Assembly (NCBI GenBank): GCA_947626095.1
Contig: CANQQV010000002.1
Location: 97,092-161,091, forward strand
Direction of reading: 5' to 3'
Length of the DNA: 64,000 nt
Origin: an uncultured Bacilli bacterium
Lineage (GTDB): Bacteria; Bacillota_I; Bacilli_A; RF39; UBA660
Shown: positions 49,796 to 62,765 of the stretch, piece by piece
Numbering within the stretch: the stretch's first letter is position 1
How the letters are laid out: the number at the start of each line of letters is the position of its first letter
Translations under genes and position numbers: made by a program
Notes under the pieces: model-generated
The model's database searches: none
What the model was told of the DNA's origin: nothing
What the model saw: only the letters and a program-made list of their open reading frames with translations

Positions 49796-50983
49796 TTAAC
49801 GATTAATTAATTCTTTTAACTTATTAATTTGGTTATTTAATAAAATACATAATCTATTGATACGAGTATCAGAATATCCCGTTAAATGTTGATATTGATG
49901 TAGTAAATCGTCAAACCATTCTACTATTCCATCTAATTTACTGATATCTATTCTTTTGACATTTTTAACTACTTTAATTATTTCATCAAAAGGTTTTACT
50001 TCATAAAATAATCTTCCATTCCCCTCAATATGAATCTCTTCTTCATCGTAATATTCAATATTTAAACTTTGGCCATTATCAAATATAGGAGCTACATCTA
50101 TCCATTTTAAAGAATTAACATCTCTTATAATACCAAAGTTATTTAAATGTCTATCTTCATTCATAATAAGATAATCTAGAATATACATATTCTCTACTTT
50201 TTCTCTAGCATTTTCTATACCATTTTCTTCTAACTTTTTAATATATTCTTCATAATCTTTTGAATTATCATGTCTTGGCATATCATGTTTTATTTGAGAG
50301 CAGGTAATAAATTCAGTATCTTTAGTTATAAAACATGGACATTTAGATACTACCATATCTTTATATGTATCTATAGTATACTCTACATGATTAAATCCTA
50401 ACCTTTTACATATTTCACTTGCTAATACTTCATTAAATGGTTGTAATGTTTCATTTTTATATCCACCTTTTAATAAGTATCTTGTACCATTTTCTATTAT
50501 CCAAGCTTTTTTAAGCATTCCATCTGTAGTATTATTAGGAGTTCTTAAAGATGTTTCCTTTGTAATAGTTCTACTATTGGTGGATAAGGAAGCTTCCATA
50601 AATTCCGCATAATCAAAATCGTTGTCAAAAAAGTTGATATCATCATATGCAATATTACTTTCATAAGGTTTTAACCAATATTGATCTGATAGAGATAAAC
50701 CAAAAGCTTTATCTAAAAGTTCATAAGGAGCACTTATATTCAATCTATGTAATAGTAAATCTAATCTATCACGCCATGAGGGAATTCCTCTTCCTTTAAA
50801 CCATTCACTTAAATTTGTTATAAAAGAAGTACTATTAATATCATTTTCATTATATAAACTTTTTAAAATATATGGTGCATATTTGATGTTTTTGATTTCA
50901 TATATATAATCAAAGAATTTTGAATTTTCATTATATTCTGCAACCAATACTTCGATATTTTTATTCATTAATATACATTTCAT
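49796..50983 (-). CDS. HipA-like kinase domain protein
   Basis: DGMLKKAW, NEVLASEI, NEDRHLNNFG, APIFDNG. Confidence 0.82.
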   Translation of the reverse strand: MKCILMNKNIEVLVAEYNENSKFFDYIYEIKNIKYAPYILKSLYNENDINSTSFITNLSEWFKGRGIPSWRDRLDLLLHRLNISAPYELLDKAFGLSLSDQYWLKPYESNIAYDDINFFDNDFDYAEFMEASLSTNSRTITKETSLRTPNNTTDGMLKKAWIIENGTRYLLKGGYKNETLQPFNEVLASEICKRLGFNHVEYTIDTYKDMVVSKCPCFITKDTEFITCSQIKHDMPRHDNSKDYEEYIKKLEENGIENAREKVENMYILDYLIMNEDRHLNNFGIIRDVNSLKWIDVAPIFDNGQSLNIEYYDEEEIHIEGNGRLFYEVKPFDEIIKVVKNVKRIDISKLDGIVEWFDDLLHQYQHLTGYSDTRINRLCILLNNQINKLKELINR

Positions 50984-51923: not shown

Positions 51924-53030
51924 TCACGCATTAATAGTGACATTTTTACTATGTTTTTGAACTAGATCAAGAATCTTTTTTCTTTCAGTTTCATTAGCTA
52001 GTCGTGGACGATAATCATTTACTGGTTTAGGCGTTGATGATACCATTGCGGGAATAACTTCAATTTGGGAATCTGATAGTTTATGATCAGTAAATGTTAA
52101 GTTGGTATGGAAGACCATTGTTTCAAAGTAAGCAGGATTTTTATTACCACCAAAGGTAAAGTTACCTAAACTATAGACAATATATTTATCTTTGTATTTT
52201 TCAATACCTTGTAAACAATGAGTATGATGACCAATGATTAAATCGGCGCCATTATCGATAGCATAATGAGCTAGAGATTCTTGAGACTGACTTTGTTGGA
52301 ATGATAGTTCGATACCCTAGTGATATGTCATGATAATCATATCAACGTTTTGACTTTTTAAATAGTTAAGAGCTTTTAAAGTATCTGGTTTACAATCAGC
52401 TACTTCATCTTCAGCACAGTATAAACCAGCCATACCAATTTTTATACCTTTAACATCGAGAATAGAATAACTATCATTACCATAGAATGGTAGTTTAGCT
52501 TCACGTAAGTTATTTTTAGTATCTTCGTAACCTTTTTCGCCATAATCATGAGAATGGTTATTAGCAATGTTAACAACATCAACACCTGAACCAGTTAGAA
52601 TTTTTAATACTTTAGCTGGTGCTTTAAAGTTAAAGGCTTTAGGAACACGGTAGCTTTCGTCAGCATCAGTGATAGCTAGTTCAAGGTTAGCAATAGTTAA
52701 ATCATCTTTTTCAAACATATCTTTAAAGTTAGCTAGGAAGTAATCTGGTCCTTCTTTTTCTAAAACTTTATCATAACCTAAATCACCATAATAAAAATGA
52801 GTATCAACATTAAGCGTACAATCCCCTACAGCATGGATATCGATAGTTGTTTTAGTTGGTTCCAAAACAGGAGGTTTTTCTGTTGGATTATTTTCTGGTT
52901 CTTCCGGTGTAGCAAGATTTTGTTTTTGGGTTGTTTGATGAAATTGAGAAATAATTAAGACAACTAAGATACATCCAATTATTGTTAATAGAATAAGTGA
53001 TATATTTATTATTTTATTTCTTTGTTTCAT
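51924..53030 (-). pseudogene. CapA-family metallophosphatase-like gene with an in-frame amber stop
   Basis: GD, NLE and NNHSHDYG motifs, then YH-TAG-GIE at 52317-52319 where the family has HWG. The frame continues (IGHHTH, YSLGNF) to 51924. Confidence 0.88.
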
Positions 53031-53248: not shown

Positions 53249-53328
53249 GTCTCCATAGCTCAGATGGATAGAGCGCAGACCTCCTAAGTCTGGTCATTGG
53301 CCGAGTTCGAGTCTCGGTGGGGACACCA
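53249..53328 (+). tRNA. Element-encoded complete tRNA-Arg(CCT) with an 8-nt variable region
   Basis: Acceptor GTCTCCA/TGGGGAC, D arm GCTC/GAGC with A20, anticodon arm CAGAC-CTCCTAA-GTCTG, T arm CCGAG-TTCGAGT-CTCGG, A73 and encoded CCA. Confidence 0.92.
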
Positions 53329-54088: not shown

Positions 54089-54892
54089 ATGAAAACAAAT
54101 ATTATATATAATGAATCTAGTGAAACAATGCACCAAATAAATAATGAATCTATTGACATGATTGTGACCTCTCCGCCTTATAACATAAATATAAGTTATG
54201 GTAATAAAGTTTCCAAAGGAAAAATAATTCAAAGTAAAGGTGTTAAGTATAAAGATAATCTTCAAGAGGATAATTACAGATTAATGTTGGAAAAAGTATT
54301 TAGTGAATGTAAAAGAGTTTTGAAAAAAGATGGTTCAATTTTTATAAATATTAAAAATAGATATAATGATGGAACAATACTTTCACCATTTTGGATTCAG
54401 GATTATTTTAAAGATATGTTTTTAAAGAATATAATTATTTGGAATTTTGATTGGGGTGGTTCAACAAATAAAAGGTTTGCTCCTAGATATGAATATGTAT
54501 TTTGGTTTACAAAAGATAAAGAAAAATACAAATTTAATTTAGATTCTATTAAAATTCCTGCCTTAAATTATAGACCTGATAGATATAAATCACAATTAAA
54601 AAATCCTAGTGATGTATGGAAAATATCTATGGTTTCTGGGAATTTTGAAGAAAGAACAGAACATCCTGCGCAATATCCTGAAAGACTAATAGAAAGAATA
54701 ATTGGATGTTCAACATTTAAAAATGATATTGTGTTAGATCCATTTATGGGTTCTGGGACTACGGCAGCAGTTGCAAAAAAAATGAGCAGGAATTATATAG
54801 GATATGAAATAGTTCCTGAATATATAAAGATTTCAGAAGATAGATTAAAAAAATGTAAGAAAGGAGAATTATTAGATGAAAGAGACTGTTAA
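54089..54892 (+). CDS. DNA amino-methyltransferase, beta class (probably N4-cytosine), M1
   Basis: Motif IV TSPPY before motif I DPFMGSGTT; HPAQYP. Confidence 0.93.
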   Translation: MKTNIIYNESSETMHQINNESIDMIVTSPPYNINISYGNKVSKGKIIQSKGVKYKDNLQEDNYRLMLEKVFSECKRVLKKDGSIFINIKNRYNDGTILSPFWIQDYFKDMFLKNIIIWNFDWGGSTNKRFAPRYEYVFWFTKDKEKYKFNLDSIKIPALNYRPDRYKSQLKNPSDVWKISMVSGNFEERTEHPAQYPERLIERIIGCSTFKNDIVLDPFMGSGTTAAVAKKMSRNYIGYEIVPEYIKISEDRLKKCKKGELLDERDC

Positions 54893-55649
54893 GATTGAAT
54901 TTGGTGATTGCAGAGATTTATTAAAAAAAATTCCAGATGAGTCTGTAACTCTAGTTGTAACTTCTCCACCATATAATATTGGAAAACCCTATGGAAAATA
55001 CAAAGATAAAATACCTTTAGAAGAATGGAAAGAACTGATTGATGATGTTACAAAAGAAATTTATAGAATATTAAAACCTAATGGTAGTTTCTTTTTAAAT
55101 CTATCTCCAATACCCTATGGAAAAGATAAGGAGATATTACCATTACCTTATATTGGCTATGATATTATGAAAAAAAACAATTTTAAAATAAGAAATATCA
55201 TTACATGGACATTTAATAATATGCAAAATTGTACTAATAGATTGTCAGGAAGATATGAAAATATCATATGGGGTGTAAAAGACTTAAGTAATTATATATT
55301 TAATTTAGATGATATTAGAGTTCCTTATATTACTCAAAATGACAAAAGACTTACAGGTGTTGGAAGAAATCCTACTGATGTATGGTATTTTAATCGGGTA
55401 AATAATGTTACAAAAAAGAAATTAAATTTAACACATCCAACAATTTATCCATCAGATATGATTGAAAGAATAGTATTAATGGCATCGAATGAAAATGATG
55501 TTGTTCTTGACCCTTTTTTGGGAAGTGGAACTACTGTTGCTGTTGCATTAAAATTAAATAGAAAAGGAATTGGATTTGAACTTGATGAAAATTATAAAAA
55601 TGAAATTAACTTAAGACTTAAAAATGTTCAAATACAATTAAAGTTATAA
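54876..55649 (+). CDS. DNA amino-methyltransferase, beta class (probably N4-cytosine), M2
   Basis: TSPPY, HPTIYP, DPFLGSGTT; overlaps M1 by 17 nt. Confidence 0.93.
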   Translation: MKETVKIEFGDCRDLLKKIPDESVTLVVTSPPYNIGKPYGKYKDKIPLEEWKELIDDVTKEIYRILKPNGSFFLNLSPIPYGKDKEILPLPYIGYDIMKKNNFKIRNIITWTFNNMQNCTNRLSGRYENIIWGVKDLSNYIFNLDDIRVPYITQNDKRLTGVGRNPTDVWYFNRVNNVTKKKLNLTHPTIYPSDMIERIVLMASNENDVVLDPFLGSGTTVAVALKLNRKGIGFELDENYKNEINLRLKNVQIQLKL

Positions 55650-55673
55650 AAAGACATCAAATTGATGTCTTTT
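55648..55673. terminator. Bidirectional terminator between the MTase pair and the nuclease-TGT operon
   Basis: AAAAGACATCAA-A-TTGATGTCTTTT inverted repeat. Confidence 0.75.
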
Positions 55674-57018
55674 AATTAATATTATCGTGAATATATTTAA
55701 AAAAATCTATTGGAAATTTATTTATTAAATTTTCAAAACTTTCAAATTTTGATACTAATTTAGTTAATTTACAATGTTGCCATATTGAATGGCAATTCAT
55801 TATTTGTCTGGCATAATAATAGTATTCATCCGATATATATTTTTTAGAGTATAATTCTTTTAAATTGTTAGTATTATTTATTAACTTACAAGCAGGACAT
55901 CCACATAATTGGATATCATTATCTACTTCATTTATTTTATAATAGTCAAATTTATAATTATTATTTATTATTTCTAAATTGTTATCAATCATCCCAGGAA
56001 TAAATTTTGAAAAACTTTCTCTTGCTTGTTTGTCAAAAACAATAGATGATGATTCATTATTTCCATCATATGCTCGTCTTCCAGGTGTCTGGCAATCAAA
56101 AGAAGTAGCACCATTTAATACTAATGATGGTATATTATCTTTATTGCCACCACCTAATACATGTATTGGTTTTTCACCAACCACATTTTTTACAATCTTT
56201 AATGCTTTAGTAACTAAATGAGTATTTTTTAAATTACCTTTACAATCATCAAACCAAGAATCATCAGCATTTTTACTACTTGCAATGCCACCTAAGGCAT
56301 ATCCGAAGAAATTTAAATTATTATTTTTTTCTTTATTTACAATATAATTAATATATTCTTGATATTCATCAGGGGTTTTACCATGAACTGTTGCATAAAC
56401 TTTAGGATAGTAATTTTTATGCACTTTTAGATATTCAATTGTTTTATCTAAAAGTATTTTATTAAAATCATTTTCCATTAATCGATTTATTTCTGTTTTT
56501 AAATTTTCATCAGAACATTCAGAATCTTTAAAAGTGTATTTCCCACCCAAATCAAATCCTATTACAAAATCAAATTTATACTTTTGAGCAAAATCATAAT
56601 ATTCATACATTTTTTCAATCATTGTTTCTTCTACTGTGTTATGTAACTTTATTTTCCCTCTAATAATATCATTCAATATGTTTCTTGCTCCTGAATCTAG
56701 TAAATATATATTGTTATTATAATCATATTTTCCAGGAATATGTTCTTTGCAAATGTATTTTTCCTTATATATCATATCATTTCTGGTGAATTCTAAAAAC
56801 TCAGAAAAAGATTGATAATTATTTAATTTAGATAGCCATTTTGTAGCAAATTTTGGATATTTTAAATAGTAATAATTATATAATGTTGGAATTCCATTAT
56901 ATAAATCTAAATATACTGTTTCACGATATTTATCACTTCCGCCACCACCTAGGTTAGATATCCAAAAGAAACTAGGAACAACATATTTTTTGTTATTAAT
57001 CATCATTACTTGTTTCAT
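55672..57018 (-). CDS. tRNA-guanine transglycosylase (TGT)/DpdA-like protein
   Basis: TGT motifs in order: LLDSGA, IGFD, VHG, YALGG, PIHVLG, SFDC, and zinc site CGCPAC...H. Confidence 0.82.
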   Translation of the reverse strand: MKQVMMINNKKYVVPSFFWISNLGGGGSDKYRETVYLDLYNGIPTLYNYYYLKYPKFATKWLSKLNNYQSFSEFLEFTRNDMIYKEKYICKEHIPGKYDYNNNIYLLDSGARNILNDIIRGKIKLHNTVEETMIEKMYEYYDFAQKYKFDFVIGFDLGGKYTFKDSECSDENLKTEINRLMENDFNKILLDKTIEYLKVHKNYYPKVYATVHGKTPDEYQEYINYIVNKEKNNNLNFFGYALGGIASSKNADDSWFDDCKGNLKNTHLVTKALKIVKNVVGEKPIHVLGGGNKDNIPSLVLNGATSFDCQTPGRRAYDGNNESSSIVFDKQARESFSKFIPGMIDNNLEIINNNYKFDYYKINEVDNDIQLCGCPACKLINNTNNLKELYSKKYISDEYYYYARQIMNCHSIWQHCKLTKLVSKFESFENLINKFPIDFFKYIHDNIN

Positions 57019-57785
57019 TTTATCATGCTCCTAATGATCTCTACAAATTCCTCTAAGGTTCCCATTTCTAGAAGTTTTGAATATATCTTTTCTTTATATA
57101 TTGATTGAGGATTTTTTTCAAAATCTCCTTCGCGTTCTTGTCGTTGAAAAATTTTTTCGTTTATAAGAGCATTTTTTACTTGTTCACTTGTTTCAAAATA
57201 TATTCCTTTTAAACAAGGATAATCTATCCAGTGGATATAAAAGACCGGTCTTTCAATATCTGATTCGATAATTTCCAATTGCCTTTCTATCTTTTTGTAA
57301 TCTAATGTAGCACTACTTTCATAACAATATCTATTTATTTTGTTTATTGCTGAAATAAAAGGCGCACAATGATATTTTACTTCAAAATATGCAATTATTC
57401 CCTTATCTTTACCTAAAATCATACAATCAGGGTATTTTTTATTTGTTTTGTCCCCATGAACTGCTTTTATTTTTAAATGATTGGTAAAATAATCTATTAA
57501 TATTTCTTCAAATAATTGTCCCATAATTACATCATATTTAATATGGCTTTTGTTTCTGGGGTTCATGAAATACTGACCACATTTTTTACAAACATCTTTT
57601 AATTCAGGAATTTTTTCTTTTAAGACTTTAACTGGAAAAGGATTTTCATTTTGATTATTCTTAAACATATTATCAAAACAATCTTTATTGAATTCAGAAT
57701 ATAATAATTGATTTTCAAAAGTTGGTACATTCTTAAAAAAGTCTGTTAATTTATCTTTATACAATTCAAGTATTTCCTCATACAT
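57015..57785 (-). CDS. PD-(D/E)xK nuclease, putative restriction endonuclease
   Basis: GQLFEE...YPDC...YFEVK; 4-nt ATGA overlap with the TGT-like gene; lies next to two MTases. Confidence 0.72.
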   Translation of the reverse strand: MYEEILELYKDKLTDFFKNVPTFENQLLYSEFNKDCFDNMFKNNQNENPFPVKVLKEKIPELKDVCKKCGQYFMNPRNKSHIKYDVIMGQLFEEILIDYFTNHLKIKAVHGDKTNKKYPDCMILGKDKGIIAYFEVKYHCAPFISAINKINRYCYESSATLDYKKIERQLEIIESDIERPVFYIHWIDYPCLKGIYFETSEQVKNALINEKIFQRQEREGDFEKNPQSIYKEKIYSKLLEMGTLEEFVEIIRSMIK

Positions 57786-58427: not shown

Positions 58428-58480
58428 TTTTAGAGTTTTCTCTTCTAATAACTTCTATTATTATGAGGAGGATTGATAGT

Positions 58481-58663
58481 ATGAAAGAAAAACTATATAC
58501 ATTAATTGAAATTTCAAATTGGACAAAGACACCAGTTCTATATCTAAGAAGAATGATTAAAGAGGGAAAACTTGAAGCAAGTAAGATTGGAAGAAATTAT
58601 AAGGTAAGAGAATCAGAGGTTGAAAGATTCATTGATTCTTGTAGGTACAAAAATGTCAGATAA
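58481..58663 (+). CDS. Excisionase-like HTH_17 DNA-binding protein
   Basis: LYTLIEIS...LRRMIKEGKLEASKIGRNYKV; RBS GAGGAGG before ATG at 58481. Confidence 0.85.
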   Translation: MKEKLYTLIEISNWTKTPVLYLRRMIKEGKLEASKIGRNYKVRESEVERFIDSCRYKNVR

Positions 58664-59003
58664 GGATTTACTTAAGGCATTAGGCCTTGATAATAGGACA
58701 ATTACTATTGGACTTAATGATGAGTATGCTCAAATGATGATCGAAAAGAAAATTGATAGTTATCTTAAAAAGTTAGATGAAGAAAAAAAGAAAGAAGATT
58801 TCATTGACCGATTGAAAAATAGTTACGATGAGTATAAAGAAAAACAACAATTAGTAGAAATGCTAAAAAGTAAGTATGTATATGGTGCAATTAAGGATAT
58901 GCTAATTAGAGATGGTTTTAGTTTTCGTTGCCCAACATGTATTGATTTATCCGGTCAATATGGTATAGCAATTCAGAACTATCCAAAGTATAATAAAAAA
59001 TAA
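58653..59003 (+). CDS. Hypothetical protein (element)
   Basis: Overlaps the end of the HTH gene; coiled coil and a CPTC motif. Confidence 0.6.
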   Translation: MSDKDLLKALGLDNRTITIGLNDEYAQMMIEKKIDSYLKKLDEEKKKEDFIDRLKNSYDEYKEKQQLVEMLKSKYVYGAIKDMLIRDGFSFRCPTCIDLSGQYGIAIQNYPKYNKK

Positions 59004-59011
59004 GAGATGGT

Positions 59012-60103
59012 TTAGGTCATCTCTTTATTTTTTAACTTATATTTTGTCTGTTTACTTTTATCATAAACAAACATATTTAACAAATTTGTTTCTTCTATAA
59101 TATTTTGAATATACCATATAGCATTGATAATTCTTAAAGTATCAATTTGTTTATTTGAATACTTTGAACCATGTGAAATTAAATTTCTATTAATTATATT
59201 AGATTGAGGATTTTTTAATTGCTCATTATTCTTATATAATTTATCATAAAAGTTTTTTAAAATTTCTATTTTCAAAAACATTTGATATGTATCATGACTT
59301 AAATAATAATCATGTAGTGAATCAACTACTAGATGTGATGTGTGTTGCTTAGTTGAATTGTCATCTATCAATTGCAAGGTTAAACTATCAACATAAGTAA
59401 TTAGTGAGGCCAAACATATAGAATAATTGCCTAAAAAATAATTTTGTTTTATTTGCCTTAATATTTGTTTTTTATCTTTCCTTTCTTCTCGTTTTATACA
59501 TTCAGAAAAAATTCTATTTATCCTAGATTTTGTAAAATGTTTTATCATCTTTTTTTCAAAATCATTTTTGTTAAGTTTTGTTAAAGAATTTATATTTTTA
59601 TACTCATATTCATAAGGAATTACCCAAAATCTTTTGTTTAAATATTCAGTTTCATATCCAGATAAATCTCCTATGTGTAGTGATGTGATTGTTTTAGATA
59701 ATCCATCCATAATACTTTGTAATTTAGAGGAAACTGCAATATTAATAAGATTACTAAAATCATAAGAATCAATAATTGATTTAAATGTTTCAGATAATTT
59801 TGAAGTAGTTTCAATACTATTTTTTATTACATTAGGCATAATAATCTTTTGATAATCTGCAATAATTTTTGCTGTTTTATTAAGTGATGAACTTAGTTCC
59901 ATATTTTGTTGTAATGCATTTGGAATTATTGATGTATGCATATCAATTAAAGATTTTGATAATTGACTTAGTGTTGATGACATTCCTTTAATGCTATTCA
60001 TATATTCTGCTGATTTTAATTTTTCTTGAATTTCAGACAAACTTGTTTCATTATGGCTGTCTAGTGATTTAATAATATTTTTTTTGTCATTATTTTCTTT
60101 CAT
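59012..60103 (-). CDS. Protein with a C-terminal HEPN-like Rx4H motif
   Basis: Helical N-terminus; NRNLISHG at 59168-59191 near the C-terminus. Confidence 0.55.
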   Translation of the reverse strand: MKENNDKKNIIKSLDSHNETSLSEIQEKLKSAEYMNSIKGMSSTLSQLSKSLIDMHTSIIPNALQQNMELSSSLNKTAKIIADYQKIIMPNVIKNSIETTSKLSETFKSIIDSYDFSNLINIAVSSKLQSIMDGLSKTITSLHIGDLSGYETEYLNKRFWVIPYEYEYKNINSLTKLNKNDFEKKMIKHFTKSRINRIFSECIKREERKDKKQILRQIKQNYFLGNYSICLASLITYVDSLTLQLIDDNSTKQHTSHLVVDSLHDYYLSHDTYQMFLKIEILKNFYDKLYKNNEQLKNPQSNIINRNLISHGSKYSNKQIDTLRIINAIWYIQNIIEETNLLNMFVYDKSKQTKYKLKNKEMT

Positions 60104-60181
60104 GTTTTCACCTCAAGAAATATTATATCATCATTTTTGCTGTATTTATGCTATAATAGTCAATCAAAAGGAAGTGATGTC

Positions 60182-60631
60182 ATGATTCTATATAATACTA
60201 GAACAGATAAGTTACCTTTAAGTACAGAGTTTTATAATAATCATGCAAATGGTCTTAAAATGTTTAGGTATAATGAAACTCTTATGAATAATTGTGGAGA
60301 TTATAAGATTCAAGAACAAATTACTTCTGATGTTTATTACACTTACAATGCCTTAGTAAAATTCAATAATACTTTAGACAAAGAGGTTATCAATGCTTTT
60401 AATATATTAGATAAGTTTTTACAAGAACATAAAGAAGTTAAAAATAGTAAGGATAACAAGTGCAAAAACTATTATGAAAAAATTCTTTATTGGAATAATA
60501 AATATAAAAAAGATTCATCAGATAGTAGTGTCCAAATAATTATATCTGATGTGCAAGATTTAATGAGATTCTTAGCAAAACAAGAAATAATAAAAGAATC
60601 CGGATGTAATTTAAAAAGAAATTATTTTTAG
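60182..60631 (+). CDS. Hypothetical protein (element)
   Basis: TGCTATAAT promoter and RBS-like AAGGAAGTGA before ATG at 60182. Confidence 0.6.
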   Translation: MILYNTRTDKLPLSTEFYNNHANGLKMFRYNETLMNNCGDYKIQEQITSDVYYTYNALVKFNNTLDKEVINAFNILDKFLQEHKEVKNSKDNKCKNYYEKILYWNNKYKKDSSDSSVQIIISDVQDLMRFLAKQEIIKESGCNLKRNYF

Positions 60632-60820
60632 AGGACAAAATTGCCCTCTTATTTTTTTTGTTTTCTTTTAGATACCGAACACAAATCGAACATCAAAACA
60701 ACAAAAAACTCATTCTAAGGGGCAGACATGAGGTTATTAATAATAATAAAATGGAATCAACAAGAGAAAAAACACACTCTTGATTGGCCAATAAAATTTG
60801 TGTTATTAGGAGGAGATTAA

Positions 60821-61330
60821 ATGAGTTTTTTAGATTATATTAATGAGAATACAGAGGGGTTGGCTTTAATTGATAGATTAAGAAATGCAATAAAAAATTT
60901 ATGTCATGATGACATTAAAAATGAGTTTAAAGAAGTTACAGAGGATGATATTGATAAACTGACTCTTTTTATTGAAAATAGTCTTATAGAATGCTTAAAG
61001 AATTATGATGGAGATTTTGATACTATTTCATTAGAATATGTAACGAATACAATTGGGGGTTTAGTAGGTTTTCATCGTTTGCTTAATGGTATTGATAAAA
61101 ATAGAAGAGAATCTTATTTAGAAATATTATGGGATGTAATATGTGAGTCATTTTCTAGTGTTGATGATATAGATAAATTATGTGAATTATCTTATGTAGT
61201 CAATAAGTATGTAATGATTAATGCCGGAGAATATGATGGAGATTATTCAGATTGTCTTTGTGAAAAAGACATGCAAGAGTGTTTATCAGAAATATATAAA
61301 TACATACTTAAAGATAAATTGGATTTCTAG
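60821..61330 (+). CDS. Hypothetical acidic protein (element)
   Basis: Strong RBS AGGAGG; 169 aa. Confidence 0.7.
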   Translation: MSFLDYINENTEGLALIDRLRNAIKNLCHDDIKNEFKEVTEDDIDKLTLFIENSLIECLKNYDGDFDTISLEYVTNTIGGLVGFHRLLNGIDKNRRESYLEILWDVICESFSSVDDIDKLCELSYVVNKYVMINAGEYDGDYSDCLCEKDMQECLSEIYKYILKDKLDF

Positions 61331-61335
61331 GGGTA

Positions 61336-61539
61336 TTGGCTTTGACTAAAGAGATGTGTGATTTAAAGACAATATCAGAATATCTAGATTTATCAATACC
61401 ATATATCAGAAAGTTAGTCAGAGCCAAAATGATACCTTATTATAAATTTGGTAACAGACTAAAATTTGATATAAAAGAAATCAATGAATGGATAGAATTA
61501 CATCGCCAAGAAGAACGAAAAAGTGTCCTTTTCTTCTAG
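61336..61539 (+). CDS. Excisionase-like HTH_17 protein adjacent to the integrase
   Basis: ISEYLDLSIPYIRKLV...IPYYKFGNRLKFD..EINEW. Confidence 0.85.
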   Translation: MALTKEMCDLKTISEYLDLSIPYIRKLVRAKMIPYYKFGNRLKFDIKEINEWIELHRQEERKSVLFF

Positions 61540-61619
61540 GAAAAAATGCCGTTTTATGGTATAATATTTATAGATAGTTAAGTATGTGTTCTATCCCATA
61601 AGTTATGAAAGGAGAACTT

Positions 61620-62765
61620 ATGGCAATTAAAAAAATAGATGTGAACAAATACAAAATAACTATTGAACTCGGTTATGATATATTAGGTAATCGGAAACGA
61701 AAGACAATCAATTTTACTGGTACTAAGTCAGAGGCAATTAAAAGAGAGGCCGAACTAAAAACAGAATATTATCACATGGGAGAATCCAAACGAATAACAG
61801 ATTTGACTTTCAAAGATTTATCAGAAATATTCATTGAAAAATATTGTAAGCCAAATATTTCATTGGTTACAACAAATGGATATAAAAAGTCTCTTAAAAG
61901 AATACTTCCAATCATAGGAAATAGAAAGTTAAAAGATATAACACCTTTTGTCTTAGATAATATGTATCAAAAATTGAGAATTGGTAAGAATGGTCAAGAG
62001 TTAGGATATCATTCAAATTATAATTTATATAAAGTTGTAAATGTTATGTTTAATCAAGCAATTAGATGGGAGATTATGGATAAGAATCCTAACTTAAAAG
62101 CAAGTAAGCCAAAGAAAGAACATAAGGAAAAGAACTTCTATGATGTTTATCAAGTTAAGAAGTTGTTAGATGTTCTTGAAAATGAATCTATCAAATATAA
62201 AATGTTAATTGTACTTGCCTTAGATTCCGGTGCAAGAAGAAGTGAGATTTGTGCTTTAAGATGGTCAGACATTGACTTAGATACAAGAATGGTAAGCATA
62301 ACAAAATCACTTAAAGTTGTTGAGGGTGTCATTGATGAAAAAACAACAAAGACAGAATCATCCATCAGAACAATTAAATTGAGTGAAGCGACTATCAATC
62401 TTATTAAGGAATATAAGAAATGGCAAGATGCCTATAAGTTAGTTAACAAGCAAAGATGGATTGGAAAAGATGACAGAGTTTTTACCTCTTTAAATGGTTC
62501 ATACATGTTCCCGGGTACTTGTGACCATATATTGAGAAAGATTGTTAAGAAATACAATTTAGACCCAATATGTTTTCATGAGTTAAGGCATACATGTGCA
62601 AGTCTTTTAATTAATTCTGGTGTTGACCCTAAGACTGTCAGTAAGAGATTAGGCCATTCAGATACATCAATCACGATGGAAATATATACTCATTCATTCG
62701 AAGAAAGTAAAAATGCATGTGCAGACAGATTTGATGAAATGATGAAAAAGTTAGAAATGGCATAA
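61620..62765 (+). CDS. int: Tyrosine recombinase/integrase
   Basis: SGARRSE (R), TKT (K), FHELRHT (HxxR), RLGH and IYTH (Y); RBS AAAGGAG before ATG at 61620. Confidence 0.96.
   Translation: MAIKKIDVNKYKITIELGYDILGNRKRKTINFTGTKSEAIKREAELKTEYYHMGESKRITDLTFKDLSEIFIEKYCKPNISLVTTNGYKKSLKRILPIIGNRKLKDITPFVLDNMYQKLRIGKNGQELGYHSNYNLYKVVNVMFNQAIRWEIMDKNPNLKASKPKKEHKEKNFYDVYQVKKLLDVLENESIKYKMLIVLALDSGARRSEICALRWSDIDLDTRMVSITKSLKVVEGVIDEKTTKTESSIRTIKLSEATINLIKEYKKWQDAYKLVNKQRWIGKDDRVFTSLNGSYMFPGTCDHILRKIVKKYNLDPICFHELRHTCASLLINSGVDPKTVSKRLGHSDTSITMEIYTHSFEESKNACADRFDEMMKKLEMA

Follow-up and report, generated by a model that had tools for sequence, protein, structure and literature searches.

Here, we describe a module of four adjoining genes in a 64,000-nucleotide stretch of DNA from an uncultured Bacilli bacterium (GTDB lineage Bacillota_I, Bacilli_A, RF39, UBA660; contig CANQQV010000002.1, positions 97,092 to 161,091; hereafter the window). 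It joins two amino-methyltransferases (M1 and M2), a protein of the tRNA-guanine transglycosylase (TGT) superfamily (T) and a nuclease with a PD-(D/E)xK fold and motif (N). The same four-gene set recurs in dozens of unrelated genomes, which places its linkage far beyond chance, and N is obligately accompanied by T or by a remote homologue of T, here called T', that fills the same slot. We propose, as a reading whose probability falls somewhat short of even, that the module is one horizontally mobile restriction-modification (R-M) unit of a type II-like kind in which T would act on guanine in DNA as part of the restriction arm. In it, a separate and sizeable family of TGT-fold proteins has become a fixed member of an R-M cassette that in all else is of textbook type II form.

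All four open reading frames (ORFs) are intact and together occupy positions 54089-57785. Their coordinates and frames agree with the original prediction, made from the letters of the window alone, which had described two convergent units, M1-M2 and N-T, the latter with an ATGA overlap, and a terminator common to both. M1 (54089-54892, + strand, 267 amino acids (aa)) and M2 (54876-55649, + strand, 257 aa) overlap by 17 nucleotides. On the opposite strand, N (57015-57785, - strand, 256 aa) precedes T (55672-57018, - strand, 448 aa), and a shared ATGA holds both the stop codon of N and the start codon of T. A hairpin with an 11-bp stem, to which no strand is assigned, lies between the convergent stop codons at 55649-55673; this terminator-like site is likely the bidirectional terminator of the two units.

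Recurrence of the module and exchange at the T slot

A scan of one genome per species, anchored on T, yielded 29 loci in which gene presence was scored by tblastn. N was found in 27/29 of these loci, at least one methyltransferase in 25/29 and all four genes in 24/29. The five misses are three contig ends (L009, L010, L021), a 71-residue fragment (L029) and a locus without M2 (L014). The last, arranged as T-M1-N-N' (L014:5986-9542; N' is a paralogue of N treated below), is the sole evaluable locus with a single methyltransferase.

A second set, obtained by a metagenome scan with the N profile, comprises 59 loci; some of its contigs are common to the T-anchored set, and the two sets are therefore not independent. 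N, T or T', M1 and M2 are present together as full ORFs in 40 of the 59 N-anchored loci. A full-length T or T' ORF occurs in 46/59 (32 T, 14 T'), and in four more (L051, L057, L060, L083) T or T' is only partial because the contig ends there. In L092 (6000-9900) the whole N-T-M2-M1 module has decayed into fragmentary tblastn matches, with one T fragment as the sole ORF of at least 80 aa. Six loci (L048, L061, L080, L084, L087, L089) offer no room for T or T', and L088 is a deletion remnant. The one possible exception is L085, where an unrelated ORF of 133 aa comes after N, 680 bp short of the contig end. Where room allows, no locus was found that holds N and the methyltransferases without T or T'. 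The spacing from N to T or T' is -23 to +27 bp in 53/54 adjacent same-strand pairs. The neighbourhood of two methyltransferases, a TGT-like protein and a nuclease, known to the original prediction from a single locus, thus recurs in both sets.

Clustering of 760 ORFs from the 29 genome loci and the window returned as recurrent only T, N, the methyltransferases and a small helix-turn-helix (HTH) ORF, all other clusters being antisense shadows of the four genes. The same clustering bears out that dpdB/C, queC/D/E and CD-NTase genes, of which none had been noted in the element, are not conserved beside the module.

T' (P0309) is a 380-aa protein that fills the slot between N and M2 in 14 loci (L052:6817-7959, L044, L045, L047, L053, L059, L062-L065, L067, L069, L070, L090) and has no tblastn similarity to T. 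The homology of T and T' follows from comparison of their profiles by hhalign (97.9%, E-value (E) 4e-13, 274 columns). T' retains the N-terminal glycine-rich motif together with LLDSG, FD, HFLGCGG and SVD; its three Asp are all invariant, and it is without the CxCxxC..H zinc site and without a conserved His at the position of H212 in T. Against phage 9g DpdA, hhalign gives T' a probability of <1%. There are 238 homologues of T', of which all named ones are labelled hypothetical.

T and T' are interspersed on the maximum-likelihood tree of N (57 rows), which requires 9-10 changes between them, at least 7 of which are forced by well-supported branches. Comparison of L027 (T) with L053 (T') shows a DNA identity of 90-92% on either side, as far as the N stop and then onward from the M2 stop, with a clean replacement of the gene in between. 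Within T itself, 16/67 locus pairs have N at least 75% identical yet T less than 50% identical, M1 and M2 being at least 65% identical in these pairs; all 16 stem from one split, that between the clade of the window and the L022-type clade. Taken together, the interspersion on the N tree, the clean replacement in L027/L053 and the discordance within T indicate that the T slot is exchanged as a cassette, which suggests that T is the component under diversifying phage pressure. For an R-M system, it is evolutionarily unusual that T and T' change places as cassettes while their partners stay constant.

In two loci, a frameshift splits T while N is intact (L027:5992-7352, where M2 is also split, and L056:2249-3624). 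These splits could be real inactivation or assembly error.

Protein families and conserved residues

Sequence similarity between T and known TGT proteins is low. The Pfam TGT profile matches T at 26.8 bits (cut-off 26.3) over residues 199-391 only, and neither single-sequence nor profile search gave a significant TGT match of T among solved structures; only fold comparison worked. The AlphaFold model of T (pLDDT 93, pTM 0.92) has TGT or archaeosine-TGT (arcTGT) chains for all of its best 50 Foldseek matches in the PDB (E from 4e-9, TMq 0.50-0.56). Its fold matches in BFVD are phage TGT/DpdA-like proteins, with lower TM scores. By this model, T has the TIM-barrel TGT fold of the PF01702 superfamily.

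The original prediction that T retains both catalytic Asp, the base-pocket Asp and the CxCxxC..H zinc site is borne out across 20 homologues, in which D108 (LLDSG), D156, H212-G213, G243-G244, H286, D308 (SFD), R314-R315 and the zinc site formed by C372/C374/C377 and H410 are invariant. The active-site motifs are kept in 58/59 full-length T ORFs. In Salmonella DpdA, according to the available part of its biochemical description (PMC10164549), Asp95 serves as acid/base and Asp256 as nucleophile, while Asp130 and His181 bind the base edge. Matched by motif position, without superposition, DpdA Asp95/Asp130/His181/Asp256 correspond to D108/D156/H212/D308 of T, so that H212 is the His of DpdA type, found where tRNA TGTs have Gln. 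The original placement of T nearer to DpdA stands as far as this HG variant is concerned, which fits the base-binding His181, but it does not extend to the sequence level. There, hhalign gives the T family a probability of only 0.8% against phage 9g DpdA and 90% against the Tgt of the host, the latter over the C-terminal half only, in which the GG, FDC, CxCxxC and His motifs coincide.

T as a housekeeping Tgt (TIGR00430) was rejected: it reaches 24.2 bits where the cut-off is 306.75, in keeping with the earlier distinction between the two. The host genome (1.6 Mb, 91% complete) has its own canonical Tgt (517 bits) on contig 21, plus QueA. No QueC and no QueF were found in this 91% complete genome. 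A search of T and T' against PADLOC gave no match at E up to 1, its DpdA model included, although phage 9g DpdA itself matches that model only at E 0.02. A HMMER scan of 1.84 billion representatives with T returned 70 proteins at E <=0.001, essentially the family itself, and the named ones among 197 T homologues are all labelled hypothetical. TGT families are the nearest named clusters to T in the ESM Atlas, which we take as a lead only. The pairwise profile comparisons with host Tgt and phage 9g DpdA leave too little alignable sequence for a deep phylogeny. At the level of sequence, T makes up a compact family of its own within the TGT superfamily, outside Tgt and phage 9g DpdA. It likewise stands outside the arcTGT, DpdA and Cap10 families, from Cap10 being set apart by its partner genes and by its zinc site.

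M1 and M2 are both of the beta class with the motif IV TSPPY, as originally described, and are about 35% identical to each other. M1 matches PF01555 (N6_N4) at E 7.8e-63 and the PADLOC model MTase_II at 1e-59; for M2, the PF01555 match is at E 5.7e-53 and the PADLOC type II methyltransferase match near 1e-60. Among solved structures, M1 is closest to N4CMT (8S9M, 4e-28), an N4-cytosine methyltransferase with SPPY, and M2 to M.RsrI and M.MboIIA. M1 orthologues in related loci are 64-85% identical, and SPPY is present in 131/131 full-length M1 and M2 ORFs collected across the loci. The accessible text of PMC8885841 gives SPPY as the motif of most bacterial N4-cytosine methyltransferases, while N6-adenine enzymes carry DPPY. 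From the SPPY motif and the relation of M1 to N4CMT 8S9M, we predict that M1 and M2 make N4-methylcytosine (m4C), one on each strand of an asymmetric site.

The small HTH ORF recurs in five loci, 5' of M1 in L003 (5236-5484, -), L006 (10322-10582, -), L019 and L026, and 5' of T in L011 (5615-5866, +). It is a Cro/C1-type HTH (PF13443, E 1e-17; Pfam was run on the L003 and L006 copies) and looks like the controller protein of regulated type II systems.

N has no significant match in Pfam, NCBIfam or PADLOC (best PADLOC E 0.05), and a sequence search against solved structures likewise gave none; again fold comparison alone worked. Its AlphaFold model (pLDDT 82) matches the folds of Hjc resolvases, D212, the SPARDA DREN domain, DpnI and SwaI. 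The residues D120 and E135-x-K137 (YPDC...FEVKYH) are invariant across 20 N homologues, and the motif PDC...E[VLI]K[YF]H is found in 74/74 full-length N ORFs. Modelled fold and motif thus identify N as a PD-(D/E)xK nuclease. All named ones among the 251 N homologues are labelled hypothetical, and the ESM Atlas, again as a lead only, places N among unnamed clusters. Six Cys (C36, C66, C69, C121, C154, C191) are also invariant in the 20 homologues, which suggests that N may hold a metal or Fe-S site. In the N model, residues 143-156 alone are of low confidence.

One N clade (16 rows, support 100/99) carries N', an N paralogue of about 180 aa, directly 3' of N (for example L028:7417-7959(-), L003:2320-2853(-) and L020:5543-5992(+)). 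Its PD-(D/E)xK motif is degenerate, the D together with (D/E)xK being kept in 0/15 parsed copies, and N' is probably an inactive partner subunit. In the loci of this clade, T is convergent to, or 5' of, an M1-M2-N-N' operon. The T' cassette, the N' paralogue and the m4C prediction go beyond what had been noted for the window.

Possible roles of T

Several lines of evidence favour a place for T in the restriction arm. N never occurs without T or T' where this can be judged, and N with M1 and M2 thus seems insufficient alone. As a rule, T shares its message with the nuclease, and those of its residues that bear the chemistry are invariant. In addition, T is a pseudogene beside an intact N in L027 and L056, a frameshift that would be tolerable for a restriction component and not for an essential self-mark, and most hosts are without preQ0 synthesis (full-length QueC is present in 4/11 host genomes and absent from 7/11, these metagenome-assembled genomes being incomplete).

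Under the proposed mechanism, M1 and M2 would form the modification arm and set m4C on both strands of an asymmetric site. T would flip a guanine of the unmethylated site into its guanine-type pocket (D156, H212), where D308 would attack C1' with D108 as acid/base, roles that we assign on the basis of DpdA biochemistry as far as it is covered by the available text (PMC10164549). The base would be excised or exchanged, or a covalent or abasic lesion left. N, usually translated from the same message, would convert the lesion or the flipped site to a strand break, and m4C from M1 and M2 on the partner cytosines would block the action of T and N on host DNA. As m4C pairs with guanine, one may speculate that methylation of the partner cytosine is a natural block on a guanine-flipping enzyme. 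That methylation-inhibited, base-excising restriction enzymes exist is documented for the R.PabI family (PMC10273834). A narrower and distinctly tentative version of this reading is that T and T' are 'restriction transglycosylases', a new effector class performing covalent Asp-ribosyl excision or exchange of guanine opposite an unmethylated cytosine, with N breaking the DNA and m4C protecting it.

If T acts on DNA in the restriction arm, the chemistry of restriction involved would be new, and DNA editing would gain a new source of enzymes that excise or exchange bases in a sequence-directed way. A restriction transglycosylase would be the first TGT-fold enzyme to serve as an effector and not as a modifier, and base-excision restriction would then have arisen independently a second time. 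The module, at four small genes, lends itself to direct testing.

A number of points weigh against placing T in the restriction arm. To our knowledge, characterised TGT-fold enzymes all exchange bases, and a hydrolytic glycosylase is not among them; in the presence of free guanine, the reaction of T could simply reseal. The N' clade transcribes T apart from N, or first with the methyltransferases (L014, L025). Pairwise identity of T correlates better with that of M1 and M2 (Spearman 0.59-0.65) than with that of N (0.26). T is moreover swapped for an approximately 22%-identical paralogue beside near-identical N and methyltransferases, which implies that any co-adaptation of T to the recognition sequence cannot be a fine one. 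In L027 and L056, errors of assembly may account for the frameshifts. Finally, Cap10, a TGT-fold defence protein, can bind and hold an effector protein instead of acting on nucleic acid, as reported in the available part of 10.1101/2025.04.06.647259.

It is unlikely, if worth serious weighing, that T is instead a DpdA-like modifier which introduces a 7-deazaguanine (from salvaged preQ0 or preQ1) or another base as a second self-mark, N cutting unmarked DNA; the module would then be a minimal Dpd-like system without DpdB/C. The active site of T is of the DpdA type, with His where tRNA TGTs carry Gln, and Dpd itself is a precedent of a TGT-fold enzyme on the modification side (PMC10164549). That T follows M1 and M2 in identity more than N, and comes first in an operon with the methyltransferases in L014 and L025, is also consistent with a marking function, and a host with Tgt and QueA but without QueC and QueF would have to import the precursor. 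However, no DpdB/DpdC-like partner or preQ0 gene is conserved in the loci, and the lack of full-length QueC in most of the host genomes, incomplete as they are, argues against an obligate preQ0 mark. T matches neither the PADLOC DpdA model nor, by hhalign, phage DpdA, most loci couple it translationally to the nuclease and not to the methyltransferases, and its pseudogenes adjoin intact N in two loci. Two dedicated methyltransferases, moreover, are already enough for self-marking.

We regard as rather improbable the view that T is an accessory against phage counter-defence that strips or exchanges 7-deazaguanines in modified phage DNA, so that N can cut. Defence glycosylases of other folds do excise 7-deazaguanines from phage DNA, as stated in the accessible portion of 10.1101/2025.10.29.685425. 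The hypervariable T slot, swapped as a cassette with at least 7 T/T' switches on the N tree, and the divergence of T beside conserved N in the 16 discordant pairs would fit an arms race with phage deazaguanine variants. Yet such an accessory should often be missing, while N and the methyltransferases never occur without T or T' where room allows, and the pocket residues of T are those for guanine recognition. We further know of no precedent for the removal of 7-deazaguanine by a TGT-type mechanism, and preQ1 insertion is regarded as irreversible.

It is highly doubtful that T and T' are mainly Cap10-like regulators or tethers that bind N, or a part of N tagged with a nucleobase, and thereby control the nuclease while catalysing little or nothing on nucleic acid. 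The zinc-less TGT-fold protein Cap10 assembles into an indispensable complex with the effector CdnD and keeps it inactive (10.1101/2025.04.06.647259, available part); N and T are translationally coupled, and T' is zinc-less as well. The three catalytic and base-binding Asp are nevertheless invariant in T and T', which argues for retained chemistry, an argument weakened in that Cap10, too, keeps nucleobase-binding residues and a catalytic Asp (same excerpt of 10.1101/2025.04.06.647259). Against such a role also stand the lack of a Cap9/QueC-like conjugating enzyme in the loci and the N' clade, in which T is not adjacent to N. A complex prediction for T and N, run without controls, scored 0.00 and bears neither way on binding.

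The PrrC anticodon nuclease, which resides inside the EcoprrI type I system, offers an analogue for a last role, a tRNA-targeting abortive-infection back-up that would excise G34 or bases at the queuosine position upon phage attack on the restriction complex. We give this the least credence: tRNA is the canonical substrate of the family, hhalign ties the T family to host Tgt (90%) and not to phage DpdA, and T retains the zinc subdomain that aids nucleic-acid binding in QTRT1 (10.1101/2025.04.06.647259, as far as available), but T' is interchangeable with T without this subdomain, the base-binding His is the DpdA (DNA) variant and no sensor or activator is evident, which leaves analogy only.

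Hosts, island setting and relation to known systems

The module is found in at least five phyla, with hosts in Bacillota, Bacteroidota, Pseudomonadota, Elusimicrobiota and others. The T-anchored hosts include Elusimicrobia, Rummeliibacillus, Ruminococcus, many Clostridia, Selenomonadaceae, Alphaproteobacteria (including Inordinaticella), Bacteroides/Bacteroidaceae and Candidatus Scatousia, and named homologues come also from Staphylococcus, Clostridium perfringens, Turicibacter, Robertmurraya and Aliarcobacter. Among relatives of the host, T is present in 1/60, and in 0/26 genomes of the same genus. By tblastn, T was found in none of 72,556 plasmid records and 50,697 phage records, and an IMG/VR scan gave no relative; with no plasmid, phage or viral contig match in these collections, carriage of T by phages or plasmids was rejected. 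The module is a sporadic, horizontally moving gene set of chromosomal islands.

The stretch that bears the module in the window, from a tRNA-Arg(CCT) gene at its left edge (53249-53328, + strand, ARAGORN) to a tyrosine recombinase/integrase on its right side (61605-62765, + strand, PF00589, E 4e-34), has a GC content of about 23-27%. The low GC and the flanking tRNA-Arg and tyrosine recombinase genes point to an integrative island as the location of the module; att repeats were sought for this island and none were found. Between N and the integrase (58463-61539) lie ORFs of 127, 363, 164 and 169 aa without a Pfam match, which may be additional island cargo. Just beyond the island, amid unannotated ORFs, a HipA-like kinase (49796-50983, - strand; HipA_C, E 8e-9) may be a toxin-antitoxin or defence neighbour. 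A PGA_cap-family ORF of 237 aa (52317-53030, - strand), which adjoins the border tRNA-Arg, covers profile positions 14-139 of 255 and looks truncated.

TGT-fold enzymes known so far comprise tRNA modifiers, the DNA modifier DpdA and the protein-directed Cap10. R.PabI, which has a half-pipe fold and excises adenine at GTAC with no need of a partner nuclease, differs from T, for which a TIM-barrel TGT fold is modelled and a glycosylase activity is only proposed; on account of its TGT fold, T was rejected as a member of the R.PabI family. The likeness is one of functional analogy, as the available part of PMC10273834 describes base excision in the recognition site that is inhibited by methylation and followed by a strand break (references in PMC12707154).

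In type IV cyclic-oligonucleotide-based anti-phage signalling systems (CBASS), Cap10 is likewise a TGT-fold protein of an anti-phage system that binds an effector, and it is without a zinc site, as is T'. It differs in that it works with Cap9 (QueC-like) and a CD-NTase, whereas the module has neither and T keeps its zinc site; no CD-NTase or Cap9 was found among the conserved neighbours or, by Pfam, in the 10 flanking ORFs of the window. BREX-related capture (BRC) systems are another predicted defence context for TGT homologues (PMC12839542, available part). The partners there are PglZ, BrxC-like, STAND NTPase, HerA/FtsK and GNAT proteins, and the TGT is proposed as a modifier. No paper that treats two methyltransferases, a PD-(D/E)xK nuclease and a TGT together was found in the open PMC subset and bioRxiv; an entry in REBASE only is possible. 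In the accessible part of a 2025 R-M review (PMC12707154), transglycosylases come up only in connection with DpdA and PUA domains, and neither there nor in the accessible parts of the BREX/BRC paper (PMC12839542) and of the review of base-excision restriction (PMC10273834) is the module described.

Dpd (DpdA/B/C plus DpdD-K; Salmonella Montevideo and others) resembles the module as an R-M-type defence with a TGT-fold enzyme acting on DNA guanine, and the catalytic Asp pair of DpdA, as well as the Asp and the His that bind the base, have counterparts in T. In contrast to Dpd, the module is without the DpdB ATPase, DpdC, preQ0 genes and DpdD-K, and T is without a PADLOC DpdA match. In place of the Dpd genes, the module carries a small PD-(D/E)xK nuclease, to which T is coupled in most loci, and two ordinary methyltransferases of type II.

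At the sequence level, PF01555 occurs twice in the module, each time with SPPY, and adjoins N with its PD-(D/E)xK fold and motif. Type II systems with two m4C methyltransferases are exemplified by BfiI; we know of no described type II system with a TGT-fold component. Like type II R-M systems for asymmetric sites, the module has two paralogous beta-class SPPY methyltransferases adjoining a nuclease in a compact convergent or co-linear operon, a controller-like HTH in 5/29 genome loci and a mobile, patchy distribution. It differs from these systems by a fourth, obligate gene for a TGT-fold protein, to which one clade adds a probably inactive paralogue of the nuclease.

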